A stretch of 64,000 bases of DNA from an uncultured archaeon (GTDB taxonomy: Archaea; Aenigmatarchaeota; Aenigmatarchaeia; QMZP01; JACQNV01): positions 4,955-68,954 of the forward strand of contig CAZVWU010000006.1 of assembly GCA_964631205.1 (NCBI GenBank), read 5' to 3'. Positions within the stretch are counted from its first letter, which is position 1. Every line of letters starts with the position of its first letter. This document shows positions 9,977 to 62,547 of this stretch, in pieces. A model generated the notes under the pieces. It did no database searches. It was not told where the DNA came from and was given only the letters and a program-made list of their open reading frames with translations. Position numbers and translations under genes: made by a program.

Positions 9977-10051
9977 TTTCTAGTGCAGGTCTTTGCTAAA
10001 GGGACGAAACTGGTCTGCAGACCAGTTTCCATTCTTCCTTCAAAGAAGTGC
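9977..10051 (-). repeat. Module B element (GCACTTCTTT-[stem-loop]-AAAGACCTGCACTAGAAA), intergenic copy carrying module C palindrome at 10006..10029
   Basis: Identical termini to two copies in the tRNA-Ile intron and one in the tRNA-Ser 37/38 intron. Confidence 0.88.
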
Positions 10052-10055
10052 AAGG

Positions 10056-10544
10056 CTACCTTTTTAATTTGATTATTTCAGCTCTCTCGAGGAATATTAC
10101 TCTGGAACTGCTCAAAAGCTTCCTGAAATTTTCAAATTTGGCTGGAAAATTTTTCTCCTCTGGAGTCCCTGTTTGCGAGTGGAGGCTTTTTGCCGCATTT
10201 GCAAGCGAGTCGAGATTTCCCAGCAATACAAGATCGGCTTTAATTATTTTACCCAAAAGCTGCTCATCTTCCGGAAACTTCCAGTAAGCAAGCGTTTCCA
10301 TTTCTTCCATTGCAAAATTGATGTCGTCGATTATTCTTTTTGTTTTTTCCTGCTGGCTGGCTTTTTGTTTTTTAGCCACATCCTCGAGCAATGCCTTCAT
10401 TTCCTTCAGCTTCGAAATCCATAATCTTCTGGCCTTTTCATCTGTTTGGTTGGCTTGGATGTCTGAGTATTTATAGGGGTAAATGAACCTTTTCATTATT
10501 GAAATCTCTTTCGAATATTCCGGTTCTATTTTTTCCCAGCCCAT
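10056..10544 (-). CDS. Hypothetical helical protein
   Basis: 162-aa ORF, operon-like spacing. Confidence 0.6.
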   Translation of the reverse strand: MGWEKIEPEYSKEISIMKRFIYPYKYSDIQANQTDEKARRLWISKLKEMKALLEDVAKKQKASQQEKTKRIIDDINFAMEEMETLAYWKFPEDEQLLGKIIKADLVLLGNLDSLANAAKSLHSQTGTPEEKNFPAKFENFRKLLSSSRVIFLERAEIIKLKR

Positions 10545-10548
10545 ATGA

Positions 10549-11142
10549 TTAATTTTCCTCCCCTTTTTCTTGGATTTCTTTTTTATCTGGCTTCATTTTC
10601 TTGTTCTTTTGGTATTCTTTTGTATTGCCTTTTTCAGCTTTATTTTCTTCAGGATCCAGGTTGATGGAAAAATTCAACAGTTCGATCCCCCATTCCTGGA
10701 GTGTTTTCTTGATTTCTTCTTTCAGGAAGGTTTCAATATCTTGATTTTTCTGGCTGCCTTCAAGGATTTTTGGAATTGCCTGTTCATATAATTCTGAATA
10801 AATTTCATCAACGGTAAGCAGGGCTTTGCCTGCCATGAGGGTTCTTGCGAGCTTTTCTGGAAGGTAGACTGCAAAACGTATTTCGATATTTGAACCATTC
10901 TCTGTTGGCAAATTTTCAATCCTTTTGGTGATAATTTTTTCTGCAGTGTCTACAAGAATTATTTCTGAGAAGTCTTTTATCGAATGTTTTCCAGCTTCCA
11001 GCTCCTCTTCAACCGAGCCTTTCCTGATCACAAGGGCAATTTCCTTTTCTTCAAGAAATATATTTTTATGCAGAACTCCAGGTATCTGGCTTGCATGTAT
11101 CCTCTGCGCCACTACTTCGTCTGGTTTTCCCCATTTTTTCAT
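10549..11142 (-). CDS. SPFH/band-7-like hypothetical protein
   Basis: EKEIALVIRKG..LEAGKH and LQEWGIELLNFSI resemble SPFH; start chosen from TATA spacing. Confidence 0.55.
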   Translation of the reverse strand: MKKWGKPDEVVAQRIHASQIPGVLHKNIFLEEKEIALVIRKGSVEEELEAGKHSIKDFSEIILVDTAEKIITKRIENLPTENGSNIEIRFAVYLPEKLARTLMAGKALLTVDEIYSELYEQAIPKILEGSQKNQDIETFLKEEIKKTLQEWGIELLNFSINLDPEENKAEKGNTKEYQKNKKMKPDKKEIQEKGEEN

Positions 11143-11183
11143 GCTTGTATTATGGTGTTTAGTTTTATATTTGGGGCCTTGAT

Positions 11184-11196
11184 ATAACAGTGTTAT
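11184..11196 (-). promoter_or_regulatory. Palindromic operator candidate ATAACACTGTTAT (copy 1)
   Basis: Identical 13-mer at 14384, 37758 and 46366; lies just upstream of a TATA-like box. Confidence 0.6.
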
Positions 11197-11241
11197 ATTC
11201 AAGAGCATCAATTTAAATAACTTGCAATATTTTATTTACAC

Positions 11242-12003
11242 ATGGTTTACTCTGCAATTGTTTCAGACTGGAACGGAACTTTATTTCAATATCCTGCAGA
11301 CGACGTGCAAAACAAAAAATTGGCTGTTGCTGCTTCAATTAATGATGTCCTGTATTTAAGATTAGGAAGCTTTTATAGGCTTCTCAAAACAAAAAAGAGG
11401 CTTCACCTGATGTTAGAAGAATATCGTGCAGGGAAAAGGCCTTTGCAGGATCTTTATGATGTTTTCAATAGGGAGGTTCTGGCTGGTAGGTCCCCTGAAT
11501 TTGTACATAGGGTTATCGATCAGTATGCGAGAGAGTCTGCAGATAAAGTAGATGGCAGGGTTCTCAGGCCAATTAGAAGTGAGAAATCAAGAGGGAAAAC
11601 TACTGCTATTCTGTCTGTCTCATACGACAGAAGCATACTTAAAATTTTAGAGCGAGCTGGCTTTTCAGACGTCTTCGGACCCGGAGATGTAGTAGCCAAC
11701 ACCCTTAAATTGGATGGCGATGGAAAAGTTGAAGGATTAACCCTCGGTATTTACGGGAAAAAACCTGAAATAATGGAAGCGGAGTTTTTTAGGGGAAGGG
11801 GTCTAAGGCCTGAAACAACAGTTTATCTGGACGATACTGCAGACGGTGAAGGTGTTGCTCAGATGTTGCCGGAAGGGAATTTTATTGTCCCGTTCCTTGC
11901 TTCTGAAACTTCTCCTGACTTTGCGCAGCGGATGGCTTCCAGACACGGGGCTTTTGTTCCTGCAAGCGAAGAGGATCTTGCCAGATATTTAAAATCCAGA
12001 TAA
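11242..12003 (+). CDS. HAD-superfamily hydrolase
   Basis: SDWNGT motif I, LS motif II, K, YLDDTADG motif IV. Confidence 0.7.
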   Translation: MVYSAIVSDWNGTLFQYPADDVQNKKLAVAASINDVLYLRLGSFYRLLKTKKRLHLMLEEYRAGKRPLQDLYDVFNREVLAGRSPEFVHRVIDQYARESADKVDGRVLRPIRSEKSRGKTTAILSVSYDRSILKILERAGFSDVFGPGDVVANTLKLDGDGKVEGLTLGIYGKKPEIMEAEFFRGRGLRPETTVYLDDTADGEGVAQMLPEGNFIVPFLASETSPDFAQRMASRHGAFVPASEEDLARYLKSR

Positions 12004-12121
12004 ATATGGGATTTTTAAAAAGGCTTGTATTTTTTCTCTTCATCGTTGTGGCTGGTTTTAATCCCAGAATTAAACAAATCCATGTTTATTTGTTAGAAGC
12101 AAGGTTTAAGAAATGCGATCC

Positions 12122-14215
12122 TTACACCATTATCTTCAGTTTTTTTGCAGCCAGACCCTGCAAAATCTTTGCGCCTATATCAGAGTTTTTGCGGACACTT
12201 ATCCTGCCTTCTTTTCCTACCATAGGTGATAAGAGGAATTCATCTCCGTAATATATATCAACTTGTTTACCTGTGAGGCTGGGTTCTACGAGCAAATTGA
12301 ACTTTCCTCCTGTTTCTTCGTAAACAAAGCTGACAGGTTTTTTGAAGGTTTTCTCTTTCGGCTCCACGTTTATATGGATTCCTCCCAGATGCCTTTCAAC
12401 AGCTTCTATGTTAGATCCCCCCTTCCCGATAAGAGGCGCTATTGAATCGTTTCTTACTCTTACGATAACTTCATTATCAGAGATTATTTCGACTTCTGGA
12501 TCTTTGTCATATTTCCTTAGCTCATATTTTATAACCTCTTGTGCAAGGGTTTTCACAGCAGAACTTTGCTGTTTTATTTCTCCTATAGGGATGACTACAT
12601 TCTCTTCGCCATAGCTGTAGATTTCGTATTCTGGTTTCTTTGTCTCGAAATCCCTTATCTCGACTACAGGCCTTGCAAGGTCAGCTTCTGTCATACCGTG
12701 AGGAACTTTGACTGTCAATGCGAGTTCGTACACCTGGACTATCTTCCCATCCTTGATGTAAATAACGACATCTATTACATGGGGTATTACGCCAAGCTCA
12801 ATCCTTCCAATAAATCTCTGTATTGCGTTGATGGGGTCTGTTGCATGCATGACTCCAATCATCCCTACTCCAGCCAACCTCATGTCCGAGAAGACGCGGA
12901 AATCTGTTGTTTTCCTAATTTCATCGAAGATTGTGTAATCTGGCCTGACTAACAAAAGTATCTCAGATGTTTTTTCCCAGCTGCCTTCCAAAGGAGCATA
13001 TTGCGTCACTTCTGCCCCAACTTGCAAGTCCCTTGGCTGTTCAAATGTTTTGACTATTTTATTTTTCTTCACAAGCATTTCTGCAACGCTGGCTGCGAAT
13101 GTGGACTTTCCTGAACCAGGGGGACCTGCTATAAGGACTCCTGCTGACTGGTCTGAAAGCATTTCCTCTAGTTTTTTGTGCAGTTTGTATTCTGAAAGGT
13201 CGACTTTTGCAATTGGCCTTACAGCTGTGACTTCCACGCCATCTGAAAATGGAGGCCGTGCAATAGAGATCCTAAACCTGCCTAGCTGGATTATCAAAGA
13301 ACCATAGCTGCTCATCTCGATAAACGCATCTTTTTCAGATCTTGCTTTCAAGGCTATCTGGTCTGTTATTGACCTCATCTCAAGTTCTGTCATCAGCTCT
13401 TCCCGCAATTTTACTAATTTCATTGAGCCTGGCTTCCCTTTTTTAGCAAAAGGGGCTACACCCTCTTTTAGATGGACAGATTGTGTGTCTTCTGTAAAGA
13501 AATCGTCTAGCTTGAGCTTCTGTTCCCTCAAAGGGACTGGAGTGTATTCAACTGAAATCCCTTCAACTTCTGCAATCAAAGCCTGCACATAATCAGAAGT
13601 CATTAAGATTGCTTTTTCCCTCGCAGCTGTATCCCTTATCAAGGCATCAATACGGCCTTTCTTTGCAAGCTGTATCTCCTCCATTGTAGGCCTTCTTCCT
13701 GTGAAAGAGATTGTGATCCCTTTGTCTTTTCCAAGTTCCCTTATCCTTTTTATTTCTTCTAGACCTTCGAAACCAATATCACGGCTCCTGCTTGCCTGAG
13801 CCTGGAGTTCATCAAGGACCATCACAGGTATGACTATTCTTGTATCCTTGAATTTCCCTTCCTTAATAAGCTTGGAAATTTTCCCCTGTATAAGAACAGA
13901 TGTGTCTGGCACAATTGTTTTTTTTGTTTGTTTTAGTTCCAGCCTGTCCTCTGGTTTTCCTGGCTGTTTTGTCTCATTTTTTTCCAGTTTTTTGTCCTCT
14001 GGTTTTTTCTCTTCAGTTTTATTTTCTTTTATTTCTGTTTTTTGTTCCTTTTTTTCTTCCTGTTTTTCGGTTATATTTTTCTTTGGGATCTCAACACTTT
14101 CTTTTTTTAAAAGAAAGGGCTGATTCTCTTCTGGAATTTTTATAGAGGTTTCAGAACCCTCTTTTTCTACAGGTTTTATAGAAGCTGTAGAGCCTTCATT
14201 TTCTATTTTTTTCAT
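12122..14215 (-). CDS. PIN-domain/PilT-like ATPase with KH domain (PINA-type)
   Basis: VPDTSVLI PIN start, GPPGSGKS, DEIR, GMIGVMHA, LIGKGG KH motif; K/E-rich N-terminal extension. Confidence 0.88.
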   Translation of the reverse strand: MKKIENEGSTASIKPVEKEGSETSIKIPEENQPFLLKKESVEIPKKNITEKQEEKKEQKTEIKENKTEEKKPEDKKLEKNETKQPGKPEDRLELKQTKKTIVPDTSVLIQGKISKLIKEGKFKDTRIVIPVMVLDELQAQASRSRDIGFEGLEEIKRIRELGKDKGITISFTGRRPTMEEIQLAKKGRIDALIRDTAAREKAILMTSDYVQALIAEVEGISVEYTPVPLREQKLKLDDFFTEDTQSVHLKEGVAPFAKKGKPGSMKLVKLREELMTELEMRSITDQIALKARSEKDAFIEMSSYGSLIIQLGRFRISIARPPFSDGVEVTAVRPIAKVDLSEYKLHKKLEEMLSDQSAGVLIAGPPGSGKSTFAASVAEMLVKKNKIVKTFEQPRDLQVGAEVTQYAPLEGSWEKTSEILLLVRPDYTIFDEIRKTTDFRVFSDMRLAGVGMIGVMHATDPINAIQRFIGRIELGVIPHVIDVVIYIKDGKIVQVYELALTVKVPHGMTEADLARPVVEIRDFETKKPEYEIYSYGEENVVIPIGEIKQQSSAVKTLAQEVIKYELRKYDKDPEVEIISDNEVIVRVRNDSIAPLIGKGGSNIEAVERHLGGIHINVEPKEKTFKKPVSFVYEETGGKFNLLVEPSLTGKQVDIYYGDEFLLSPMVGKEGRISVRKNSDIGAKILQGLAAKKLKIMV

Positions 14216-14383
14216 ATTAAATTACTCTCTTAATTCATCCGGCGCTCAAAAGCAGCCAGTGAGTTGATTTATTTTAAAATACTAGGTTAAATATCACAGA
14301 ATCAGACTGTTTGTCTGTGTTCCTTATTTGCCTGTATTCATCTAGATATAGTAATAACTAGTATATAAAGGTTGGCCTCATTA

Positions 14384-14396
14384 ATAACAGTGTTAT
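14384..14396 (-). promoter_or_regulatory. Palindromic operator candidate ATAACACTGTTAT (copy 2)
   Basis: 14 bp upstream of TTTATATA box on the minus strand. Confidence 0.6.
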
Positions 14397-14710
14397 TTTC
14401 TCTCTCTTGTTTCCCTCTCAACGCTATCCAGAAATGTATTCCTGCTTTCAGAAGTTGATTGCCTTAATGGGCTATAGAATGGCAAACCCCTCTTTCTGCA
14501 GAATTCCTTAAGCTCAGTATCGCTTGCAATCCCGTCACAATTGCCTTCCTCGTCAGCAATTTTCAAGGCTTTTCTGTAAATCTCTTCCCTTTCAGCCCTA
14601 TGGGCATTGGAATCGTAGCTGTAAAAAGCGCCCAAAAAAGCCAAATAGCCTGCTACCAGCCCTGTTATCACTTTTTCAGGCTGCCTTTCCTGCAATGAAT
14701 AGTTTGCCAT
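14393..14710 (-). CDS. Small membrane-anchored hypothetical protein, EF-hand-like motif
   Basis: N-terminal TM segment; DEEGNCDGIASDTE. Confidence 0.55.
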   Translation of the reverse strand: MANYSLQERQPEKVITGLVAGYLAFLGAFYSYDSNAHRAEREEIYRKALKIADEEGNCDGIASDTELKEFCRKRGLPFYSPLRQSTSESRNTFLDSVERETRERK

Positions 14711-14796
14711 CCATAGTATTGGAACAAGCCTTTATAAAGCTTTATATAGCATTACTACATAGTAACATTATGAGCCTCCAAGTATAACAGGGGATT

Positions 14797-16080
14797 ATGC
14801 AAGAGGCGAGGAAGAGTTTATTAGAGAACTGGATGAATTGGGAGTTTAATATGGAAATAGATAAAATCGGTGCATTAGCGGCTGAAAACAAGCAGCCTGA
14901 AAAAGAAGGGTGGGGCAGATATTTAGGCAGGAAGGCTTTAGATTACGGAGTTTCTGCAACAGCAGGGCTTGCAGCAGGATATGCAGCACTTGGATTAACT
15001 GATATTTCCAGATTTGATTTTAATGACCTTACATTTGAATTAGAACAGTATAAAGCTTCTGCAATGGTCGCCGCATCTTTGGCAGCTGGTTATGCGACTC
15101 ACAGGCTGTTGCCCAAGATTTTGAGGAAAACAAAAGAGTCTGCCAAAAGGGTAGCAGGCTATCTTTTTGAAGATGAAGTTCCATTAAAAACTAGAAAGCC
15201 AAGGGTAGGTTGCATTATAGGCCTGGCTGGATTGATTGGTTCATGTTCGTTGCCTTTCTTCGGGGCAAAAATGCCTTATATTGACCATGTGCCGTATGTG
15301 AAAAAAGCAGTTGACAAAATAGATGAGCCAAATCCTGTGAGGAAAAGGAACATCCATTTTTTCAGGTATTATATAAACCCTCTAGAAAGAATACCAATAC
15401 CCCCCGACGATTTCTCTAAATTTCAGGATTGGCATAGAGAGAACTATGGGCACACAGGCTTACCTATGGGATCAGACACTATAAGGGGAAATGTGGAACT
15501 TAAAATTAGGAAAAACTCCAGGACAGGGACGTGGGTACCTCGTAGCCTAGTCAATGCTAAACCAGTATATGAAGTATATAAAGCGACAGGAGATGAAGAC
15601 TCAAACCACAGTATCTTTGCAGGCTACTACTCTGGGCACTTTTTTATACTCTATGACAATCTAATGTGGAACCATCCTGACGTTGTTGATATTGACTATC
15701 CATCTATCGAAGCCCGTGAAAATTCTGGAACAGTTTTTTATCATATGCGTAAACTTAAAGGTGAGAGGGCAGTGGTAGACACTATTGGCCCTTTGTCTGC
15801 AGACAACTGGACTGCCTTAATAAAAATTATAGGGAAACCCGGATTGGCTTTTGGGGGACCTATTGATAATTTAATTTTGTCGATTCAGTATAAAAATCGG
15901 CAGCCTGAAAGATGTTCGGTGAAATACGAAGAAGTTGACGGTAAGACAACAATTTTATATCACACATATAGAGATAATCGTATAATGCGTTTAAGGAGAT
16001 TACAATCGGGGGAGGAAAAAGAAATAGATCTAGAGGGTAGGTTAAAAAAATTTATAGACGACGTGAATCAACAGAAATAA
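14797..16080 (+). CDS. Membrane-anchored hypothetical protein
   Basis: 427-aa ORF with several hydrophobic segments. Confidence 0.65.
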   Translation: MQEARKSLLENWMNWEFNMEIDKIGALAAENKQPEKEGWGRYLGRKALDYGVSATAGLAAGYAALGLTDISRFDFNDLTFELEQYKASAMVAASLAAGYATHRLLPKILRKTKESAKRVAGYLFEDEVPLKTRKPRVGCIIGLAGLIGSCSLPFFGAKMPYIDHVPYVKKAVDKIDEPNPVRKRNIHFFRYYINPLERIPIPPDDFSKFQDWHRENYGHTGLPMGSDTIRGNVELKIRKNSRTGTWVPRSLVNAKPVYEVYKATGDEDSNHSIFAGYYSGHFFILYDNLMWNHPDVVDIDYPSIEARENSGTVFYHMRKLKGERAVVDTIGPLSADNWTALIKIIGKPGLAFGGPIDNLILSIQYKNRQPERCSVKYEEVDGKTTILYHTYRDNRIMRLRRLQSGEEKEIDLEGRLKKFIDDVNQQK

Positions 16081-16147
16081 CTAAGATTATGAAACCTGAA
16101 GAATTGATTAAACTGTGCAAGGGAGCCCCCGAATTTCTGCTAAAAAC

Positions 16148-16224
16148 CAAATGAATCTGTATATTCTAATTTTAAGCTTCCAGAACAATTATGATTATAT
16201 AAACTACTCCACCCTTGTCCAACC
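16148..16224 (+). repeat. Degenerate duplicate of the lig promoter and 5' end (copy of 16735..16812)
   Basis: caaatga.tctg.at...aattttaa...aacaattat...aactactccacccttg.ccaa in both; ATG is ATA in this copy. Confidence 0.8.
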
Positions 16225-16273
16225 AAAGACTCAGTTTGCTGACCTATTTAAAGGGCAAATTCGTATGTTAATT

Positions 16274-16507
16274 ATGGTATCGCTGACAGCAGTGCTTCAT
16301 AAGGATGAAGATATGTATGTGGCAAGGTGCCCGGAAGTAGGCACAGCCAGCCAGGGCAAAACAGTGGATGAAGCTCTGTCAAACCTAAAAGAGGCAACTG
16401 AGCTATACCTAGAAGAATTTCCTCTCAAGGAGACCGATAAACCGATTCTTACTGTTTTTGAGATAACTGGATATGGCCAACCAACTAAAGAAGCAATCAG
16501 GGCATGA
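16274..16507 (+). CDS. hicB: HicB-family antitoxin (UPF0150)
   Basis: YVARCPEVGTASQGKTVDEALSNLKEATELYLE. Confidence 0.85.
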   Translation: MVSLTAVLHKDEDMYVARCPEVGTASQGKTVDEALSNLKEATELYLEEFPLKETDKPILTVFEITGYGQPTKEAIRA

Positions 16508-16706
16508 TGTCATTAAAATTCTTGCCAATAAATTTGGGTTCACTCCAAGAAAAACCAAAGGCAGCCATGTTGTACTGGTCAAATTTCTAAACAACGAAAA
16601 GATAGGAACAGTAGTTCCATTGCACAAAGAACTGAAATTTTCAATGCTAAAAGAAATTCTTAAACAGGCGAAGTTGACTGAAGATGAATTTGCCCAGCAC
16701 CAATAA
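16473..16706 (+). CDS. hicA: HicA-family toxin
   Basis: FGF...KGSHVVL...TVVPLHKEL..ILKQA. Confidence 0.85.
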   Translation: MANQLKKQSGHDVIKILANKFGFTPRKTKGSHVVLVKFLNNEKIGTVVPLHKELKFSMLKEILKQAKLTEDEFAQHQ

Positions 16707-16785
16707 ACTGGCAGATGGAATTTAATATAACAATCAAATGAGTCTGCATGCTTCAATTTTAAACTCCAAAACAATTATTTAGGAT

Positions 16786-18474: not shown

Positions 18475-18499
18475 ATACCCCTATTCACAACAACATACT

Positions 18500-19624: not shown

Positions 19625-19697
19625 GAGGTATCTGAAAGAAAGTTTTATTTCTTAAAGCAGCCTTGGACGCCAGTTCGCTATCCATATTAATCTTTAG

Positions 19698-19913: not shown

Positions 19914-19960
19914 ATCTTGTATTATTATAAATACCTATTTATTATACTATTAGTGTTTTT

Positions 19961-50915: not shown

Positions 50916-50918
50916 TGA

Positions 50919-51204: not shown

Positions 51205-51213
51205 ACTTAAATT

Positions 51214-51429: not shown

Positions 51430-51700
51430 AAGCCCTAGGTTTTTTGCCTTTGGTCACAATAAAGCCTAATATTATTAGTATAATACCGCTTATAACATGG
51501 GACTTTACAGCAAGATCGAAGGCTTGCTCGAGTTTATAGCCCAAAATCATCATGTTTACTGCAAACGCTATTATACCGAAGAGTATCACCAAAACCGAGA
51601 CGTACATCCATGTCCTTCTGTCAAGCTCATTTTCCTTCTTCTTACTTTCTTGCGGATCACTTTGCTGTTTTGGGACTTTTTTAGGTTTATTTTGCGCCAT
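51392..51700 (-). CDS. Small 2-TM protein (LDRRTW paralog)
   Basis: Shares ccatgtccttctgtcaag and topology with the neighbour. Confidence 0.6.
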   Translation of the reverse strand: MAQNKPKKVPKQQSDPQESKKKENELDRRTWMYVSVLVILFGIIAFAVNMMILGYKLEQAFDLAVKSHVISGIILIILGFIVTKGKKPRAYDKYEKKAETTS

Positions 51701-51736
51701 ACTCCACCACCGAAGACTCGACACTCAATACTGTTA

Positions 51737-51903
51737 TGGGCCCGCTGAGGATTGAACTCAGGGCCTCTGCATTATCAGTGCAGCGCGCTACCAATACGCA
51801 CGTTCTTTCTAGTGCAGGTCTTTGCCTCAGCAAAGAAGTGCTTTCTAGTGCAGGTCTTTCTTGGGTTTATGCCCTGAAGAAAGAAGTGCTGCGCCACGGG
51901 CCC
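51737..51903 (-). tRNA. tRNA-Ile(GAT) with 93-nt D-loop intron (51795..51887) made of two tandem module B copies
   Basis: GGGCCCG/CGGGCCC, CTGCA-CTGATAA-TGCAG; BHB CGCA GC|A ... TGCG TA|T. Confidence 0.92.
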
Positions 51904-51939
51904 GCAATCTATGATTCTATTCTAACTTTATATAAATAA

Positions 51940-52022
51940 TGGACCCGCTGGGATTTGAACCCAGAGTCACTTGGATTCCCGTACATTGCGAACCAAGCGT
52001 GTTGCCGTTACACCACGAGCCC
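51940..52022 (-). tRNA. tRNA-Ala(CGC) with 11-nt 37/38 intron (51976..51986)
   Basis: G3:U70 pair, CTTGG-TTCGCA|ATGTACGGGAA|T-CCAAG. Confidence 0.88.
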
Positions 52023-52060
52023 ATTACTATTAATTCTATCAATATATTATATACAAAAAT

Positions 52061-52621
52061 ATGTCACTAATGGAGATATTCGGCATTTTCAATGTGATTG
52101 AGGCCTTTTGGATAATTATTCCAGCTTATGCCGCAAATGGGTTGGCGCCTCTTGCAAAATTCACTGCTAGGCACCCTTTGGATGGAGGGAAAAAACTTTC
52201 TGACGGCAGGCCTGTTTTCGGGAACGGAAAGACTTGGGAAGGGTCAATTCTTGGAATTTTAATCGGAACCCTAATAGGGAGCTTTATGGGTTTTGCTTAT
52301 TTTTTCCTTCCATGGGATCTTTCACCTATTCCCCTTCAAACAGCAAAAATGGGCATTGTTTTAGGCTTAATGCTGTCTGCAGGCGCGATCGTTGGCGATT
52401 TATGCGGCAGCTTTATAAAAAGGAGGATTGGGTTGGAAAGGGGCCGGCCTTTCCCTGTTTTAGACCAGCTGGATTTTATTTTAGGCGCTTTTATTTTTGC
52501 GAGCTTTGTAACACCAATAAAAATTAACTGGATAATCCTGATCGCAATCGCCACGCCGCTATTACACTTGTCCGCGAATTACATGGCTTATCTTCTTGGT
52601 GTGAAGAAGGAGCCTTGGTGA
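52061..52621 (+). CDS. carS: CDP-archaeol synthase
   Basis: PAYAAN, PLDGG...DGRPVFGNGKTWEG, GDLCGSFIKRR, LDQLDF, KKEPW. Confidence 0.9.
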   Translation: MSLMEIFGIFNVIEAFWIIIPAYAANGLAPLAKFTARHPLDGGKKLSDGRPVFGNGKTWEGSILGILIGTLIGSFMGFAYFFLPWDLSPIPLQTAKMGIVLGLMLSAGAIVGDLCGSFIKRRIGLERGRPFPVLDQLDFILGAFIFASFVTPIKINWIILIAIATPLLHLSANYMAYLLGVKKEPW

Positions 52622-52629
52622 ACTAATTT

Positions 52630-53040
52630 ATGGTAAAAAAGATGAAGTGTATCCCAATAGCATGCGGTGTAATAAGAGACGGAAACAAGTTTCTTATTTT
52701 AAAAAGATCATCAGACTCCAGAATGCCTACTATCTGGGAATTTCCAGGAGGAAAAGTCGAACTAAATGAAAATGTAGTTAACTGCTTAAAAAGAGAGGTC
52801 AAGGAGGAAACTAATTTAGATGTAAATAATATATCTTTTTTAGGTTTTCATGACAGATATGATGGTAATATGTATAAAATTATATTTGGATATATTGTAG
52901 AGAGCTATGCTGGGCAGATCAGATTATCTGAAGAGCATCGGGAGCATAAATGGGAAACCCTGTTAGAAATTTTAAAGATGGATATAGGAATTGACACTAA
53001 ATTTTTCATTGAAAATTTTTTGCTTAATAAGCAATTATAG
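52630..53040 (+). CDS. NUDIX hydrolase
   Basis: WEFPGGKVE......LKREVKEETNL. Confidence 0.88.
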   Translation: MVKKMKCIPIACGVIRDGNKFLILKRSSDSRMPTIWEFPGGKVELNENVVNCLKREVKEETNLDVNNISFLGFHDRYDGNMYKIIFGYIVESYAGQIRLSEEHREHKWETLLEILKMDIGIDTKFFIENFLLNKQL

Positions 53041-53046
53041 TCAATC

Positions 53047-55485: not shown

Positions 55486-55589
55486 AACAGGCATAAATGC
55501 TAAAAACACAGATTCATCTTTCGACCTGTTTTAGCAAGCTCTCTTGAAATATTAAGTATATTTAGCTGTCCCCATTTAATAATATAGAT

Positions 55590-55886
55590 ATGAGTAAAAT
55601 AGTGAAGCCTAATATAACCCAGAAGCAGAGGCTAAAAAGGCTGGCAGCCGGCTTTGTTTTTATTATTTTGGTATTCTATTTCTGGCTGGTTTTGGAGGTT
55701 AATAGCCTTTCTTCGCTTTACAGACTAGTTTTAATAATTCCCATATATCTAGCAGCCCTCTCATTCTTAGAATCTTTTTTCAGCTATTGTGTCTTAAAAA
55801 AGAAGACAAGCAAAGTTTCCATGAAAATTCATTTAATTTCTTTGTTGGTTGCTGCAATAATAGCTGTAATAGCAGTTTTTGTTTAA
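55590..55886 (+). CDS. Small membrane protein
   Basis: Three hydrophobic segments. Confidence 0.6.
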   Translation: MSKIVKPNITQKQRLKRLAAGFVFIILVFYFWLVLEVNSLSSLYRLVLIIPIYLAALSFLESFFSYCVLKKKTSKVSMKIHLISLLVAAIIAVIAVFV

Positions 55887-55955
55887 TTCATCAATAACTA
55901 TAAATTTCAATGTCTTCGGATAATCTTTAAAAGGGGGGAGTCTATTATAATCTGT

Positions 55956-56588
55956 ATGGCCCAATGCGAAAACTGCGGTTCCAAGGCTGACAAGAGCTGG
56001 GAGTTCTGCCCTAGCTGTGGAGCTAGCCTAAGGGTAGCAGATGCTGGCGATCTGTTTTCTGAAATTTTTGAGAGGTTTGGACAGGAATTTGCTGAGATGA
56101 ACAAAATGTTTGAAAGGCAGATTGAGGCTGTTGACATAACCCCGATGTTCAGGAAACCAAAAGGGATCCAGCGTGGTGGCGGGTTTATAATAAGCATAGG
56201 TTCTTCCGGGGATAAGCAGCCCCAGGTTTCTGTAAGGGCATTTGGTGATGTGGATGAAAGAAAAATAAAACAACAGGTTTACAATCAACTGGGACAAGTT
56301 GAAGAAAAGCCGTTTGAACAGAAGGCGCCTAAAAAAGTGAAAGCTTATGGAGAAACAGAGGAACCTAAAACAAGGGTTGAGAAGGTTGGAGATAAGGTTG
56401 TTGTTGAAATGGAATTGCCCGGGGTTAAAAAAGACAGTGATATAGAGATAAATGAATTGGAGAGTTCAGTCGAAGTCAAAGCCATTGCAGATAAAAAAGC
56501 TTTTTTCAAAATATTGAAAAAGCCAGGGGATAGAAGAATACTAAGAACTGGATTTAATAAGGGAATTCTAAAACTAGAATTTTCTTAA
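55956..56588 (+). CDS. Zinc-ribbon + Hsp20/alpha-crystallin protein
   Basis: CENCG...FCPSCG; EEP..VVVEMELPGVK...FNKGILKL. Confidence 0.8.
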   Translation: MAQCENCGSKADKSWEFCPSCGASLRVADAGDLFSEIFERFGQEFAEMNKMFERQIEAVDITPMFRKPKGIQRGGGFIISIGSSGDKQPQVSVRAFGDVDERKIKQQVYNQLGQVEEKPFEQKAPKKVKAYGETEEPKTRVEKVGDKVVVEMELPGVKKDSDIEINELESSVEVKAIADKKAFFKILKKPGDRRILRTGFNKGILKLEFS

Positions 56589-56612
56589 GATAGGAAACCG
56601 GAAAATAAAAAG

Positions 56613-56861
56613 CTATTTTTTTGGCTCAGCTGTTTTGCTAAATGCCTTGTTCGCTTTCATCTCATCCATTTCAAGCCAGAGTATAAACAATCCGACAAGA
56701 ATCAAAAAGATTGGTAATGTGCCTGTCAAGACCACAACAAAATTCTGCCACCACTGGATATTCCCAGGCAGCCTGTTCCACCCTAACGCTGAATCTGCAA
56801 ATAGATATAATCCTACCAGAAGGATTACCAAACCAAGCAAAAGCTTTGTTGTGGCTGCCAT
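56613..56861 (-). CDS. Small 2-TM protein
   Basis: Two hydrophobic helices followed by WLEMDEMK. Confidence 0.65.
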   Translation of the reverse strand: MAATTKLLLGLVILLVGLYLFADSALGWNRLPGNIQWWQNFVVVLTGTLPIFLILVGLFILWLEMDEMKANKAFSKTAEPKK

Positions 56862-56926
56862 ATTGATATAAGATTAGACGGTTATATTTATAAGTATTAC
56901 TGCTTTAAATATTCCACCAGTATATA

Positions 56927-57505
56927 ATGGATATGAAACGGTTAGATTATTTTTCCAGCATGAATAGTGATGAGTTCAGGCAAATTCAGAGCCAGAGGCT
57001 CATTCGGTGGAGGTCTGAGGATGTTGTCAAAAGGGTTGATGGCCCGACAAATCCGGCAAGAGCCCACAGATTGGGATACAAGGCAAAGCAGGGCTTTGTT
57101 ATTGTCAGGGCAAGAGTCCCGAAAGGTGGACGGAAGTCACGGAAACCGGCAGGGGGCAGGAAGCCTTCTGCTGCAGGAAGATTTTTTACACCAGCGAAAT
57201 CTAAGCAGTGGATAGCGGAGGAGAGGACCGCAGATAGATTTCCAAATCTTGAAGTATTAAATTCTTATTTTGTGGGAGAGGATGGAGTCTCAAAATGGTT
57301 CGAAGTCATACTTGTCGACAAGAACCATCCTGCAATCCAGAAAAATAAGGAAACCAGGTGGATTGCAGAGAAACAGCATAAAGGCCGTGTTTATAGAGGA
57401 TTGACCGGCGCAGGGAAAAAATCGCGGGGCCTTGCGAGGAGCAGGGGCAAAGGGGCCGAAAAGTTAAGGCCTTCTTTAAGAGCGCACGAGAAATCGGGGA
57501 AATAA
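56927..57505 (+). CDS. rpl15e: 50S ribosomal protein L15e
   Basis: [27 protein letters not shown]. Confidence 0.95.
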
Positions 57506-57545
57506 TTTTTGCTTCTTTTTTATAAACTGGATACAAATCTAATCT

Positions 57546-58784
57546 ATGTTCGATCTCCTAAAGGAAAAGCTGAAAGAGTCTATACAGAAGCTGAGTTCTA
57601 AGGGAAAGGAAACTGAGAAAACTGTAGTTGTTGAAAAAGTTCAGGGAGCGGAGAAAAGGACCAGCATAGACGATCTTCTTAAAAAAATAAAAGAGTCAAC
57701 TGAAGAAATAAAAAAAGAAGTTGAGCATATTTCTGAAGAGCAGCGAGGGGTTGGGGAAGAAGAAAGTGGAGAAGATGTTATTGAGGAACTCACAGAAGAG
57801 GAGCAGGAATCTGTCAAGGAACCTGTTGCTGAGCCTGTCCCAGTTGAGCCGGAAGAAAGGATTGAAGGAGATCTTCACATAAAACCTCAGGGGCCAAAAG
57901 CAGGCTTCAGGCAAAGGTTTTTGAAAAAAATAAAGGTAAAAACGCTTTCTGAACAGGACATAGAGGATTTTTTTGCTGAAATAGAGCCCGGGCTGCTTGA
58001 AGCGAATATTGCGGTTGAAGTTGTTGATTTTATAAAAATTGCGATGAAGAAGGAGCTTTCTGGGAAAGAGGCTAGGAGGATAAGATCGGCGGAAGATATT
58101 GGAAAGGCTTTTGGGGACGCTTTGGTTAAAGCAGTTGACCAAGGAGGTGTTAATATTGAAGATTTGATAAGAGAATCTAAGGGAAAAAACAAGCCTGCTG
58201 TTGTCTTGTTTTTGGGCTTTAATGGATCCGGAAAAACAACAAGCATAGCAAAATTGGCTAATTATCTGAACAATAAAGGGTTCAAGCCTGTGTTAGCTGC
58301 TGGCGACACTTTCCGTGCTGCGGCGATTGACCAGCTGGAAACACATGGCAACAAGATCGGCGTTAAAGTAATCAAGCACCAATATGGGGCTGATTCTGCG
58401 GCTGTAATTTTTGATGCAGTAAAGCATGCTCAGGCAAAAGGGTTGGATATTGTGTTGGCGGACACAGCTGGAAGGACGCACACAAATGTGAATCTGGTCG
58501 ATGAATTGAAAAAGGTTGTCCGTGTGAACAAACCAGACCTGAAGATTTTAGTTATAGACGGGCTGACAGGGAATGATGCAGTTGAGCAGGCGAAGCAGTT
58601 TAATTCAGAAATAGGGGTTGATGCAGTTGTGATAACAAAAGTAGATGTTGATGAGAAAGGGGGAGCAATATTATCTGTTGCTTACACAATCAAAAAACCA
58701 ATTTTGTTTTTGGGTGTGGGTCAGGGATATGAGGATTTCAAAAAATTTGAGCCAAGGGAGTTTGTAAAAACTTTATTGGAATAG
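57546..58784 (+). CDS. ftsY: SRP receptor FtsY
   Basis: Acidic A domain, GFNGSGKTT, DTFRAAA, DTAGR, GQGY. Confidence 0.95.
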   Translation: MFDLLKEKLKESIQKLSSKGKETEKTVVVEKVQGAEKRTSIDDLLKKIKESTEEIKKEVEHISEEQRGVGEEESGEDVIEELTEEEQESVKEPVAEPVPVEPEERIEGDLHIKPQGPKAGFRQRFLKKIKVKTLSEQDIEDFFAEIEPGLLEANIAVEVVDFIKIAMKKELSGKEARRIRSAEDIGKAFGDALVKAVDQGGVNIEDLIRESKGKNKPAVVLFLGFNGSGKTTSIAKLANYLNNKGFKPVLAAGDTFRAAAIDQLETHGNKIGVKVIKHQYGADSAAVIFDAVKHAQAKGLDIVLADTAGRTHTNVNLVDELKKVVRVNKPDLKILVIDGLTGNDAVEQAKQFNSEIGVDAVVITKVDVDEKGGAILSVAYTIKKPILFLGVGQGYEDFKKFEPREFVKTLLE

Positions 58785-58785
58785 T

Positions 58786-59256
58786 ATGAATATATCAAAA
58801 CTTACGCCAAGAGATGTGGATGAGTTCTCAAGACTTGTCACCGATGTAATCCAAAACACACCATATTATTCAGAATGGGGCAGAATAAGTGAATGCAGCG
58901 GGTACAAGTTTGAATCTATAAAAAATAGGATGTTGGATAAAAATTTTCTTTTTCTTGCGGCAAAAATCAATAAAAGGATAGTCGGTTTCAGTGCAGGCCA
59001 TCATGATTTCGGCACTTTCTGGTTAGACTGGATAGGCATAGACAAAAATTTTAGAAAAAGATGTATAGGAACCGGATTGCTGGTTTTTCTGGAAAAGTAT
59101 CTGAAAGGCAAAGGCGTCCATAAGATATGGCTTGATACTATCCAAACCAACAATGAAGCTATCAATTTCTTTAGGAAAGCAAAATTCAAAAGAATCTGTT
59201 CATTGAAAAATCATTGGTACAATCAGGACTTCTATCTTTGGGGGAAATTTCTTTAA
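58786..59256 (+). CDS. GNAT acetyltransferase
   Basis: IGIDKNFRKRCIGTGLL, N.EAINFF.K. Confidence 0.82.
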   Translation: MNISKLTPRDVDEFSRLVTDVIQNTPYYSEWGRISECSGYKFESIKNRMLDKNFLFLAAKINKRIVGFSAGHHDFGTFWLDWIGIDKNFRKRCIGTGLLVFLEKYLKGKGVHKIWLDTIQTNNEAINFFRKAKFKRICSLKNHWYNQDFYLWGKFL

Positions 59257-60074
59257 TCGGCTCCAAAAAAGTATTGCGTTGCTTGCTGTATATTCGCAAC
59301 TTCCCTTACCTCTATCCCGACATCTTTTGAAATGAAAATTTTTTCTCCGACTGTACGGGTTTCGCAGATTTGGAATCCTGCTTCAGAATAGCATGACCTT
59401 TCCGGCCTATAAATCTTTGAGCTGCCCTGTCCTATTGGGACAAGAAACAGGCTGGCACCGACTTCTTTTGCGCCTATTGCTTTTGCAACAACTTCCCCAA
59501 TCGGGCCGATTGTCCCGTCCTCCTCTATAGTTCCTGTAATCATTACGCTGTTGTTTATTGTTTTGTTTTGCAGGCCGGCAATTGTTGCAATTGTGAGCGC
59601 TGCGCCTGCAGAACCGCCTTCAATCACGCTTGCATTTGCTCTCACTGTATAGACTATGTCATATTTCGAGATATCTTTCCCTGTTATATCCTCGGCGACT
59701 TTGGTTGCCTTTCTTATGGAGTTTTGCGTGTCCACCCAAAAGAACAGCTTGTCTATGTTTGTCAATATTTTGCCTGATCCTGGGGAAACCTGCACATCCA
59801 ATGACGTCACGACCCCGCTCCCTTCTTCATCAACAGCAGGCACATAGATTGAAGTAAAAGTTGACTCGGTGCTAACAGGTGCATATTCTTTAATTATTTT
59901 TTGATCTGTTATCTCGTATGCCTTAATAGTAGGTTCTTTCAATCCGCCGACACTCTTAAAGTAGGCATTTTCTATGTTCAGCCCTATAAAGATGCCTAAA
60001 AGGAAAACTATTATTATTGAGCCTACAACAACGGTAAGGCTTACGCCCAACTCTGTATCCTTTTGTTTTGCCAT
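59253..60074 (-). CDS. Membrane-anchored Lon C-terminal (S16) protease domain protein
   Basis: IEGGSAGA, MITGTI..DG.IGPIG.V..K (Ser-Lys dyad). Confidence 0.85.
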   Translation of the reverse strand: MAKQKDTELGVSLTVVVGSIIIVFLLGIFIGLNIENAYFKSVGGLKEPTIKAYEITDQKIIKEYAPVSTESTFTSIYVPAVDEEGSGVVTSLDVQVSPGSGKILTNIDKLFFWVDTQNSIRKATKVAEDITGKDISKYDIVYTVRANASVIEGGSAGAALTIATIAGLQNKTINNSVMITGTIEEDGTIGPIGEVVAKAIGAKEVGASLFLVPIGQGSSKIYRPERSCYSEAGFQICETRTVGEKIFISKDVGIEVREVANIQQATQYFFGAD

Positions 60075-60156
60075 ATCTTAACTTAAACCAGCTGTTTATT
60101 AATTTATGCCATCCCCTCTTGCTAATATTTAAATTGAGATAGTAAATAATACAGTT

Positions 60157-60924
60157 ATGCTCGCGGATAAGAACGACTATTTGTCTGCAGGGATCCACAT
60201 AGGGATGAAAGCGTGCACTGCCTACATGAAGCGATTTGTTTACAAGACAAGGGAGGACGGTCTCTGTGTATTCAACCTTCAGGAAGTGGATGAAAGGATA
60301 GCCAAAGCAATAAGCATGCTTTCGAAATACAATAAAGTTCTGGTCGTCTCCCATAAAGACGCTTCTGCTGAAGCTATAAGGAAATTTGCAGAATTGGCTG
60401 GCGGAAAGGCTGTTTCAACAAGGTTTTCACCAGGGACACTAACTAACCCCTCTTACAGGGAGTTTTATGAGCCTGACATAATCCTTGTAGTTGACCCTTT
60501 AGTTGACAGGCAGGCCATTGAGGAGGCAAAAAAGAAAAGGATTCCTATAGTAAGCCTCTGCGGGACTTCCAGTGAAGCTGTGGATATAGACTTGGTTGTT
60601 CCGATAAATAACAACAGCAAAAAATCTCTGGCATTATTTTTCTGGATACTGGCGAAAGGTGTGATGAAATCAAAAGGGATCATAAAGGAGGATAGCGAGT
60701 TCACGGCCACACTTAAAGACTTCGGCGACATAGGCAAGGAAAAGAGGATCGGCCAACCAGGCCTGGATTTGGACAGCGGACTTGATGTAGATATAGATAT
60801 TGAGATAGAATCTGGTGATAGCAAAAAAGAGACGCCAAGAAAAGGCAGGCCTAAAAAAGCTACAACAGGGAAGAAATCTTCCAAGCAAATAAAGATTGAA
60901 AGCGGTGGAGCAGATGCTAAATAA
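60157..60924 (+). CDS. rps2: 30S ribosomal protein S2
   Basis: YLSAGIHIG, RFSPGTLTNP, PINN..KKSLAL. Confidence 0.95.
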   Translation: MLADKNDYLSAGIHIGMKACTAYMKRFVYKTREDGLCVFNLQEVDERIAKAISMLSKYNKVLVVSHKDASAEAIRKFAELAGGKAVSTRFSPGTLTNPSYREFYEPDIILVVDPLVDRQAIEEAKKKRIPIVSLCGTSSEAVDIDLVVPINNNSKKSLALFFWILAKGVMKSKGIIKEDSEFTATLKDFGDIGKEKRIGQPGLDLDSGLDVDIDIEIESGDSKKETPRKGRPKKATTGKKSSKQIKIESGGADAK

Positions 60925-61375
60925 AAAAAAGATTGCAGCGGACATTCTGAAGTGCGGTGTCAGCAGGGTCAGGATTCTTGATGAAAAGCAGGTAGGGGAA
61001 GCAATAACACGGCAGGATATAAGGAATTCCATAAGAAAAGGCCTTATTGTAAAAATCCAGAAAAAAGGGACATCGAAAGGGTTTTCAAAACAGCTTTACA
61101 GGCAGAAAAGGAAAGGCAGGCGAAGCGGTGTAGGGACAAGGAGAGGGACTTTTAGAGCGCGAAACCCCAAAAAATATCTGTGGATGAAGACTATCAGGCC
61201 GCTCCGAAAGCTGTTAAAAGAACTTCTCAGGAACGGCCAGCTTGAGAAAAAAGACTGGAAGCTGCTCTATTCAATGGCCAAAGGCGGCTCATTCAGAAGC
61301 AGAGGGCACATGCTTACTTACCTAAAAGACCACGACATGCTGAAGAAGAAAGAGGTTAAGAAGGCCAAGAAATAA
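60914..61375 (+). CDS. rpl19e: 50S ribosomal protein L19e
   Basis: IAADILKCGVSRV, AITRQDIR, WM..IR.LR, AKGG.F. Confidence 0.93.
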   Translation: MLNKKKIAADILKCGVSRVRILDEKQVGEAITRQDIRNSIRKGLIVKIQKKGTSKGFSKQLYRQKRKGRRSGVGTRRGTFRARNPKKYLWMKTIRPLRKLLKELLRNGQLEKKDWKLLYSMAKGGSFRSRGHMLTYLKDHDMLKKKEVKKAKK

Positions 61376-61609
61376 TTAAGAATACTCTTTTATTTTCGCT
61401 TCAAGATAGGCCGATGCCTGTGGAGATAATTTTGGGATTAATCTTTTTGCTTCCCTGAGATAAAATTCTCTTATGTTATGCAGCCCAAAGCCACATGGAT
61501 TATCCAGATGGTAGCCTATCCTTGCTGCTATCTCAAGGTCATCCATATCTTCAAGGGTTTTCCCGAGCAGATCCCTGATACCCTGTTCATTAGCGCCTGT
61601 TTTGTCCAT
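61376..61609 (-). CDS. Small hypothetical protein inserted between rpl19e and rpl18
   Basis: 77-aa ORF with its own TATA-like box. Confidence 0.6.
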   Translation of the reverse strand: MDKTGANEQGIRDLLGKTLEDMDDLEIAARIGYHLDNPCGFGLHNIREFYLREAKRLIPKLSPQASAYLEAKIKEYS

Positions 61610-61691
61610 AATCTTACAATACTCCGGAATTTATAAGCTTGATTCCATTCAAATTTATAGTATTTAAGTCATGTATTCAATATTCTGAGAT

Positions 61692-62273
61692 ATGCCATTG
61701 ATTATTGTCCCGCACAGGAGAAGAAGGGAAGGGAAGACTAACTACAGGAAAAGGCTGAAAACAGTAAAATCCAAAAAGCTCAGGTTTGTTGTAAGGAAAT
61801 CTTCAAGGCAAATCTATTGCCAGCTTATTGAATATCAGACAAAAGGCGACAAGACCCTTTTATCTTCGAATTCCCTTGAACTTGCAAAATTTGGCTGGAA
61901 CGCTGACGGCGGGAATTTGCCTGCGGCTTATCTGACCGGATTTCTCTGCGGCCTGAAGGCAAAGAAAAATAAAATTGAATCCGCAATCATGGATACAGGA
62001 TTGTATACTTCTGTCCATGGGTCAAGGCTTTACGCCACCTTAAAGGGGGCTGTAGACGCCGGTTTGCAGATCCCGCATTCAGAGGAGGCCTTCCCTTCAA
62101 CAGAAAGGATTTCAGGCAGCCACATTGCAAATTATGCAGCAAAGCTGAAGAAAGAGAAGCCTACTGTGTACAAAAAACAATTTTCAAAGTACCTTTCTTC
62201 GAAAGTAAATCCTGAAGACTTGACGAAGCTTTTCGAGGCTACAAAGGCGAAGATTCTTGCAGAAGGAACATAA
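61692..62273 (+). CDS. rpl18: 50S ribosomal protein L18
   Basis: RRRREGKTNYRKRL, NLPAAYLTG, KGAVDAGL.IPH. Confidence 0.95.
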   Translation: MPLIIVPHRRRREGKTNYRKRLKTVKSKKLRFVVRKSSRQIYCQLIEYQTKGDKTLLSSNSLELAKFGWNADGGNLPAAYLTGFLCGLKAKKNKIESAIMDTGLYTSVHGSRLYATLKGAVDAGLQIPHSEEAFPSTERISGSHIANYAAKLKKEKPTVYKKQFSKYLSSKVNPEDLTKLFEATKAKILAEGT

Positions 62274-62310
62274 AGTTAGTTTTTTAATTCTCTACATAAC
62301 TATATTCTAT

Positions 62311-62547
62311 GCCGAGGTGGCAGAGTGGCTAATGCACTAGTCTATCCTTTCTTTTCCAAAAAGAAAGGATACAGTACCCAAAGAAAAGGATTTACAAATT
62401 GGGCGTGAATCTCGAAAAGCACTTCTTTCGGTTCAAACGGACAAAAGACCTGCACTAGAAAACTAGCATCCGAAAGGATATACAGGTTCGAAAGAGTTGG
62501 AAGTTGATTTGCAAATCAACTTCAGTCTGAAACTCCTGTCCTCGGCG
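62311..62547 (+). tRNA. tRNA-Ser(CGA) with three introns: ~30/31 (62341..62409), 37/38 (62417..62460), 59/60 (62493..62533)
   Basis: GCCGAGG/CCTCGGC, spliced arm CTAGT-CTCGAAA-ACTAG, long V arm, G discriminator; first intron boundary uncertain by 1-3 nt. Confidence 0.85.

Follow-up and report, generated by a model that had tools for sequence, protein, structure and literature searches.

The stretch of DNA analyzed here, referred to below as the window, spans 64,000 nucleotides (C6:4955-68954) of the genome of an uncultured archaeon, G000, which comprises 897 kb in 17 contigs (C-numbers) and is 94% complete. It contains four copies of a short repeat, module B, which consists of the 10-mer GCACTTCTTT, a variable stem-loop, and the 17-mer AAAGACCTGCACTAGAA followed by an A. 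Two copies lie in the D-loop intron of a tRNA-Ile(GAU) gene, one makes up the 37/38 intron of a tRNA-Ser(CGA) gene, and one lies free between two open reading frames (ORFs; Table 1).

The exact 17-mer occurs four times in the window, against an expectation of 0.26, and none of 100 shuffled sequences reached four. By itself, the 5' 10-mer lacks significance (10 matches with at most one mismatch, 8.98 expected); its exact matches in the window also number four, each the partner of one of the four 17-mers. An earlier note on this DNA, drawn from the sequence alone, had described four copies with invariant termini, all in the sense orientation of the local transcript, and we recovered them within one to two bases and in that orientation. 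The free copy does lie between co-oriented genes, as had been proposed, both flanking ORFs being on the minus strand; it is located 4 nt past the stop codon of the upstream ORF and 7 nt ahead of the ATG of the downstream one. The head-to-tail dimer reported in the tRNA-Ile intron consists of two abutting units that differ inside (20 nt versus 8 nt), and thus is not a collapsed or expanded identical repeat. Tandems are also present in the independent assemblies L236, L243, L256 and L281 (L-numbers denote fetched loci).

Relatives are represented by four other genomes of the family (G001 to G004), of which G001 belongs to the same genus as G000; the family comprises five genomes in three genera. 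In a HisRS comparison the nearest named relatives were Iainarchaeum-like DPANN archaea, at about 50% identity. DNA of G000 is present in groundwater metagenomes (three DNA runs of one groundwater study, one of them possibly the source sample).

Table 1. Module B copies and neighboring features in the window, and hairpin elements of other families with flanking repeats. Positions are those of the window unless a contig is given.
Feature	Position	Strand	Remarks
Free module B copy	9978..10051	-	74 nt; folds as module hairpin
Gene downstream of free copy	9227..9970	-	247 aa; no Pfam match
Gene upstream of free copy	10056..10544	-	162 aa; kept in relatives (165-168 aa); no Pfam match
tRNA-Ile(GAU) gene with D-loop intron	51737..51903	-	Exons by hand, compared with G001 orthologue
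Module B, unit 1 of tandem pair	51843..51889	-	47 nt
Module B, unit 2 of tandem pair	51807..51841	-	35 nt, minimal form; abuts unit 1 head to tail
tRNA-Ser(CGA) gene with three introns (31/32, 37/38, T-loop)	62311..62547	+	By hand, compared with G001 orthologue
Module B, entire 37/38 intron of tRNA-Ser	62419..62461	+	Boundaries slidable within A-runs on either side
T-loop intron of tRNA-Ser	62487..62527	+	Different hairpin, G000 only; approximate boundaries
Exact 17-mer	9978-9994	-	
Exact 17-mer	51807-51823	-	
Exact 17-mer	51843-51859	-	
Exact 17-mer	62444-62460	+	
Other hairpin family with repeats	C4:60275-60353		
Other hairpin family with repeats	C1:136924-137028		
Other hairpin family with repeats	C8:11409-11501		
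Other hairpin family with repeats	C7:7681-7786		
Other hairpin family with repeats	C5:49655-49802		
Other hairpin family with repeats	G001:C31, about 3790-3930		L161

Structure and distribution of module B

In G000, 17 of the 18 exact 17-mers are followed by an A, so that the element is delimited as GCAC...CTAGAAA. All folded copies adopt one hairpin, with a GCA/UGC helix, a 2x2 internal loop, a UCUUU/AAAGA helix, a variable extension and the unpaired 3' tail ACUAGAAA. The 5' arm pairs with the subterminal AAAGACCTGC (8 of 10 bases) and the last 8 nt, ACTAGAAA, are without an inverted partner; the extreme ends therefore carry no terminal inverted repeats. Lengths in the family range from 31 to about 116 nt, and the element carries a TAG in both orientations.

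Pairing extends into the variable interior. Among 78 distinct modules from all sources, interiors begin with a mean of 1.96 consecutive closing pairs versus 0.66 after shuffling, and 63% have at least two versus 17%. The first interior pair is T-A in 35, G-C in 15 and C-G in 12 of 77 cases. Variants of the arms covary, GCACTTTTTT occurring with AAAAACC and GCACCTCTTT with AAAGAGC. Since pairing is kept far above the shuffled level while the interior sequence varies, the structure is under selection. It could act as RNA or as single-stranded DNA. Loops of the short form are often YNMG-type tetraloops (UUCG, UGAG, UGCG, CUCG, CACG, CGCG).

Rfam 15 has no family for module B: at the gathering threshold the window yielded tRNA only, and permissive E-values on 51700-52100 gave nothing over the modules. 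A K-turn or C/D-box RNA was ruled out, as the sequence has neither tandem G-A pairs nor box motifs. We also rejected a CRISPR-like array, because spacers within an array are identical and most copies are single.

Across G000 the 17-mer is found 18 times exactly, three times with one mismatch and four times with two (a reversed-pattern control gave one match), and a regular expression for the whole module retrieves 28 copies of 35-91 nt. They are spread across 12 contigs. All four other family genomes contain the motif at up to two mismatches, with 3-9 matches each, and 36 other genomes of the order have two-mismatch, chance-like matches only. Within the phylum, 5 of 371 genomes have the exact 17-mer, every one of them from this family, and none of the 366 genomes of 39 other families does. 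Beyond these, at least 88 loci carry it, 80 of them metagenomic among the matches listed and 8 viral; the full module is present in 42, none viral. The viral matches lack the 5' arm without exception and are attributed to chance. The metagenome contigs with the element range from 29% to 61% in guanine-plus-cytosine (GC) content, and this range, the sole evidence on the point, indicates that several lineages carry module B.

Differences between relatives and flanking duplications

At all five comparable sites of G000, the congener G001 is without module B. One of these is tRNA-Ser, whose exons are nearly identical in the two genomes; the anticodon loop of G000 is longer by 44 bases, which are the module, and that of G001 is uninterrupted. 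The suggestion that the module is essentially the whole 37/38 intron thus holds, the orthologue lacking exactly those bases. G001 has the first intron of this gene only, and the T-loop intron is confined to G000. In tRNA-Ile, G001 has one diverged module versus two in G000, and the helix between 5' arm and tail is changed on both sides. The promoter regions of endA align, with 7 bases from promoter to ATG in G001 and more than 100 bases of modules in G000. At the site of C5:48446, G001 has an unrelated 60-nt spacer in place of the module, and at that of C5:43195 it has no module B.

The site of the free copy in the window has no module in any of the four relatives. There, by ORF call, the orthologous genes are 1-8 nt apart in G001, G002 and G003, and 84 nt separate the called ORFs in G004. 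The downstream gene of G000 is without the Cys-rich N-terminal part, of about 85-100 residues, found in its orthologues of 329-332 residues. Relative to G001-G004, a deletion junction therefore coincides with the module. The reverse situation is found in G002, where an antisense copy lies between the L1 and L10 genes and G000 has four bases. The copy at C1:80337 marks a synteny break: in G001, G003 and G004 the gene opposite aIF2-beta is TatD-like instead of HisRS, so these genomes offer no empty site for comparison.

Some copies are flanked by direct repeats. At C1:80337, where the genes for aIF2-beta and HisRS converge, a perfect 17 bp repeat reaches exactly from one stop codon to the other. 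The module at C5:48446 is flanked by a perfect duplication of 30 bp that comes from the end of the upstream gene, and metagenome loci have flanking repeats of 11, 16 and 19 bp. Over all sources, abutting or near-abutting repeats of at least 8 bp accompany 5 of 87 copies versus 4 of 1724 mismatched-flank controls. A short target duplication of fixed length (TA or similar) was not seen. Arrays of modules alternating with identical spacers (C1:111129 and L243) are the expected outcome of repeated insertion with duplication at one site.

Copies are also nested within other elements and decayed. The interior of the free copy in the window (9995-10041) is a second hairpin element, with ends GCTAAAGGGACGAAA ... 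TTTCCA. This second element lies reversed inside module B at C5:43195 (C5:43212-43275), and a relative of it is inside another tRNA intron (window about 63700-63765). In metagenome contigs, the module itself is nested in the loop of another hairpin family. Truncated or decayed copies are located at C3:23690, C1:145590 and C5:54186. The truncated module at C1:145590-145615 ends in ...TCTGAGGA, 4 nt before an ATG, with the former loop GAGG at the Shine-Dalgarno position.

Other short hairpin families of G000 (the TATACCC...GGTATAACC type and others) have perfect flanking repeats of 14-63 bp (Table 1). Members of other families are inserted at the very start of a pilin-like gene in both G001 and G000, where they duplicate the gene start, by 17 bp in G001. 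The small elements of G000 thus generally have duplications that are long and of variable length.

A different class of repeat is the palindrome ATATAACA(N)TGTTATAT, found at about 50 of 205 repeated-word intervals, mostly near gene starts (for example window 2-18, 11182-11199 and 14384-14398). A second recurring palindrome is AAAGCTTTATAAAGCTTT. Both may be operator or promoter motifs.

Copies in RNA genes and between protein-coding genes

Six of the 28 G000 copies are inside tRNA introns. The module in the intron interrupts the mature tRNA sequence, in tRNA-Ser as judged against the continuous G001 orthologue and in tRNA-Ile within the D-arm. Four G000 tRNAs have the module at the same D-loop position, and tRNA-Ser has it at 37/38; over all sources, intron sites include the D-loop, anticodon loop and T-loop. 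In the D-loop introns, the tail together with additional bases is the pairing partner of the 5' arm, and 9-17 bases beyond the module form a 3' adaptor that pairs with the D-stem (UGAGC/GCUCA; UGCG/CGCA in tRNA-Ile). In these introns the module, as judged from the predicted pairing, is a resident of the intron and not its whole.

In tRNA-Ser, by contrast with the D-loop introns, the module insertion itself may be the intron. By inspection, a relaxed bulge-helix-bulge can be drawn, with the anticodon stem CUAGU/ACUAG, a 3-nt A bulge, a central CUCG/CUAG helix with one mismatch, a 4-nt A bulge and the GCA/UGC helix; folding supports the stems and not the central helix. No complete bulge-helix-bulge was found by inspection and folding in free copies with their flanks, and none can be drawn within an isolated module in either register.

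The association extends to rRNA. In L297, a metagenome contig with a GC content of 0.46, the module at 2590-2627 is an intron or part of one in 23S rRNA, directly after the conserved AAGGTAGCG. Some metagenome copies start inside the last bases of a tRNA (L220/L268, L225/L241), and one starts a single base past it (L284).

The tRNA genes of this genome are poorly recognized. Rfam covers only the 3' part of tRNA-Ile(GAU) (51745-51799) and ARAGORN misses the gene; tRNA-Ser(CGA) is matched by neither. The tRNA counts of such genomes are therefore underestimates. In the whole of G000, the Rfam tRNA model gave 13 matches, 11 of them over the cut-off. Most tRNA genes of G000 seem to be interrupted, often by several introns drawn from a few recurring hairpin modules, and the intron content of the same tRNA gene differs between congeners.

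Outside RNA genes, copies occur in short gaps between co-oriented genes, at stop codons and ORF ends, in leaders and in arrays. At C4:94487 the gaps to the flanking genes are 3 and 4 nt. In three ORFs the terminal TAG overlaps the module by one base, its G being the module's first, and some ORF ends now read into the module. Other copies lie between a promoter-like TATA stretch and an ATG. Tandem arrays are found at C1:110998-111400 (with an N gap inside), C4:67780 and C4:4000-4084, and dimers and one trimer in metagenome contigs. From their translations, we take the neighboring genes by eye to include those for L3, S10, aIF1A, aIF2-beta, NAC, RpoB and HisRS.

One neighbor is endA itself (Pfam-confirmed; C4:3429-3980, minus strand), which has two full modules and one partial module between a TATA-like stretch and its ATG (C4:3980-4100). 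These leader copies could be part of a feedback through a hairpin that resembles the enzyme's own substrate, or could merely be a tolerated insertion.

The ORF C3:9490-9906 encodes a small beta-barrel protein whose basic N-terminal extension includes, in frame, a module variant at C3:9769-9803 (GCACTTTTTT...CTAAAA) that lacks the TAG; the variant would be translated unless removed.

Orientation was counted for 83 copies from all sources, relative to crudely called ORFs of 110 residues or more. Co-oriented ORFs flank 24 of these on both sides, 16 in sense and 8 in antisense, and the other 59 have divergent ORFs, one or none. Antisense copies in G000 include C5:48446 (antisense to both neighbors), C11:5162 (in the aIF1A leader) and the C4:67780 array. 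An antisense subfamily with an interior like tctatgcaNtNgtctNa lies exactly between AGGAGGT, a Shine-Dalgarno sequence, and the ATG of unrelated genes (L10, HxlR-like and others), with 0-2 spare bases on each side. Among these loci (L039, L052, L226, L235, L262, L271, L273 and L276), L052 is from G002 and L039 from G003; L226 and L276 have the same Shine-Dalgarno and ATG flanks around an antisense copy. The L1-L10 junction of G000 has neither module nor Shine-Dalgarno sequence. The subfamily looks like a portable unit of Shine-Dalgarno sequence, hairpin and ATG.

Origin of the copies and comparison with known systems

We consider it probable, from the sequence comparisons, that module B is a family of non-autonomous mobile hairpin elements that were inserted as DNA and kept where they are spliced out or harmless. 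The earlier note had offered a small mobile DNA element as one of two explanations. Presence and absence at orthologous sites, perfect duplications of 11-30 bp, nesting and tandems, and copies antisense to both neighbors support that option. Its other proposal, an excised intron that reinserts by an RNA-based route with mRNA among the targets, predicts sense-only copies. The 8 antisense copies among 24 depart from this expectation and, by the strand criterion of the note itself, remove a strict route through mRNA.

New copies would enter DNA in either orientation and would sometimes duplicate 10-30 bp of the target. Insertion would often take place beside, or in the loop of, an existing hairpin element, giving tandem arrays and nested copies. 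As G000 is about 92% coding (crude ORF count), copies would survive only where harmless, that is in tRNA and rRNA introns, tRNA trailers, short leaders and spacers, and ORF ends. The splicing endonuclease would remove those in tRNA and rRNA introns. The ends of the element could provide the intron side of a bulge-helix-bulge, namely the GCA/UGC inner helix, a CUAG that pairs with an exon 4-mer, and the A-run bulge. Insertion beside a suitable exon sequence would then make a complete new intron, of which tRNA-Ser(CGA), with exon CUCG opposite CUAG, is an apparent case. For the sites that differ between congeners, we infer gain rather than loss.

Several observations weigh against insertion of a mobile DNA element. 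Duplications accompany a minority of copies and their lengths are variable (10/11, 16, 17, 19 and 30 bp), not fixed; we know of no transposase class that gives such rare, variable duplications. Across contigs that range from 29% to 61% GC, the 27 end bases do not vary, which looks more like constraint on function than like a selfish repeat. In four cases (C4:94487, C5:43195, L044 and L053) 4 nt separate the tail from an ATG, and the same spacing follows the partial third copy before endA. By ORF call, an antisense copy lies exactly between Shine-Dalgarno sequence and ATG in six loci (L039, L052, L235, L262, L271 and L273). The tRNA-Ser difference is not polarized as gain or loss, since a 25-mer allowed up to three mismatches did not retrieve the gene from the other genera. 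On C5:42001-61000, Logan contigs of the three DNA runs break at modules, and no joint skips one.

The machinery is the other difficulty. In the 94% complete G000, Y1_Tnp had no match and RVT_1 was not found, the latter search leaving aside relatives and mobile elements outside the bin. The TnpB zinc ribbon is found in none of the five family genomes; DDE_Tnp_1 occurs among the five only in G003 and G004, and hence not in G000, transposase families beyond these three having been outside the search. A tyrosine recombinase is present in all five family genomes, in G000 as a 396-residue form with a C-terminal zinc ribbon, and nothing ties it to module B.

Candidates for removal of the copies are at hand, as G000 has two EndA-type genes, with PF01974 at C4:3456-3728 (183 residues) and at C8:64-312 (cut by the contig end). 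In the relatives, the second form is 394-452 residues long and combines an N-domain, the catalytic domain and extra sequence (for example L152 1093-2277 in G003; C8:1-620 in G000). Other ultrasmall archaea are reported to have multi-unit EndA with broad substrate range (PMC3239211), and the longer family EndA resembles these enzymes.

The strongest alternative, although we regard it as unlikely, is that an intron excised by EndA, linear or circular, abundant and stable, gave rise to DNA copies that became integrated at staggered breaks or through target-primed synthesis. Such a route would produce defined ends and variable target duplications and would need no transposase. It is in keeping with tRNA-Ser, which differs from the sister species by exactly the module, so that the module is the intron there, and with flanking duplications of about 10 to 30 bp, since long and variable duplications characterize target-primed reverse transcription rather than transposases. 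They would even fit insertion, in either orientation, of an intermediate made of RNA or cDNA. The YNMG-type loops, stable specifically in RNA, and the empty transposase searches in G000 point the same way. Against copying from introns stand the failure to find RVT_1 in this genome and the diverse interiors of the free copies, which do not reproduce a single master intron. The D-loop intron, the form found most widely, has a 3' adaptor that free copies lack. Their ends (GCAC...AGAAA) differ from those of D-loop introns and match the canonical 37/38 cut sites only after sliding in A-runs, and the antisense copies were not inserted through mRNA.

We find it quite improbable that module B is not mobile at all and is instead a conserved structured RNA signal for a host factor, EndA being the obvious candidate, with a role as intron core and as a processing or translation site in mRNA leaders. 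Possible functions are a cut after CUAGAA that releases near-leaderless mRNAs, or feedback on endA. Ends that are invariant across very different GC contents and in three genera would follow from such a role. It would likewise suit the two full copies and one partial copy that separate the endA promoter from its ATG, the regular 4-nt spacing to the ATG, the antisense placement between Shine-Dalgarno sequence and ATG, and the many neighbors that we take to be translation and transcription genes (all those named above except HisRS). A signal of this kind is hard to reconcile with none of five comparable sites being kept between congeners, the missing endA leader copies of G001 included, or with perfect flanking duplications, decayed copies and both orientations. 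Free copies show no complete bulge-helix-bulge with their flanks, and absence of the exact 17-mer from the 366 genomes of the other families would be odd for a core signal. Sharply defined ends with variable duplications, the 27 invariant bases and the regular start-codon spacing nevertheless keep both a host signal and an RNA or cDNA intermediate alive.

That assembly or binning errors created the repeats or the dimer is hardly credible: the C1:111129 array is broken by a run of N and public contigs break at module copies, but the copies have unique flanks and different interiors, and the element occurs, tandems included, in four other genomes and dozens of independent metagenome assemblies.

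A non-autonomous mobile hairpin, the reading that we prefer, invites comparison with known short elements. We found no description of module B in Rfam or in the literature, the search extending to neither supplements nor subscription papers. Repetitive extragenic palindromic (REP) sequences, bacterial interspersed mosaic elements (BIMEs) and miniature inverted-repeat transposable elements (MITEs) are short non-coding hairpin repeats with conserved ends that occupy operon spacers and are sometimes clustered. Module B shares all of these features. Unlike them, it resides in a genome without a detected RAYT or Y1 protein, and has an unpaired 3' tail of 8 nt, long variable duplications and clusters that are direct tandems. 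An autonomous partner with the same ends, as expected for a MITE, was not found with Y1_Tnp or DDE_Tnp_1 in G000 or with the TnpB ribbon in the five genomes. To our knowledge, the association with introns has no parallel in these elements.

The attC sites of integrons also have conserved ends and a variable, imperfectly paired hairpin center, and module B resembles them in its placement at the stop of one gene just before the next. Unlike attC, it has neither the R''/R' core (GTTRRRY) nor a cassette array, and it is scattered among housekeeping genes and inside RNA genes.

Eukaryotic introners are transposon-derived spliceosomal introns, present in many near-identical copies with target duplications. 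The likeness is that a mobile DNA element brings or completes the splice signals, so that insertion makes a removable intron; for module B, splicing is predicted. Module B differs in its predicted protein endonuclease and bulge-helix-bulge chemistry, is far smaller, has no transposase found for it and lies mostly outside protein-coding genes. We tentatively suggest, as a possibility rather than an expectation, that it could be to archaea what introners are to eukaryotes. Such a tiny mobile hairpin would supply the intron half of a bulge-helix-bulge and so make EndA-spliced introns beside a matching 4-mer in tRNA and rRNA, possibly also in mRNA leaders. It would spread within and between lineages by an undescribed mechanism with defined ends, duplications of 10-30 bp and no recognizable transposase or reverse transcriptase. 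Module B has a sizeable chance of being the first introner-like element among endonuclease-spliced introns.

Of the phenomena described so far, the closest is in Thermoproteales, where families of tRNA introns are reportedly subject to 'transposition' (Fujishima et al. 2010). As in module B, a bulge-helix-bulge limits placement there, and the mechanism is reported as probably DNA-level (PMC4090602, 10.64898/2026.10.13.758758); the 2014 review calls it unknown (PMC4090602). Unlike those introns, module B is not confined to RNA genes, being found also in leaders and spacers, at gene ends and in tRNA trailers, and it takes either orientation. Target duplications flank some of its copies, and orthologous sites can be empty. 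Conservation is limited to its ends, which enclose a covarying hairpin, and its host is DPANN-like. Intron transposition in tRNA genes is thus known, and the free copies, footprints, empty orthologous sites, end-only conservation and host lineage are new. Here the same element is seen both as a tRNA and 23S rRNA intron and as a free insertion with fresh duplications and empty sister sites. With defined ends, recent insertions and known endonuclease genes, the arrival of archaeal tRNA introns at new positions becomes testable. Module B may show how archaeal tRNA introns spread and, if the comparison with introners is correct, would supply the missing mechanism behind 'tRNA intron transposition'.

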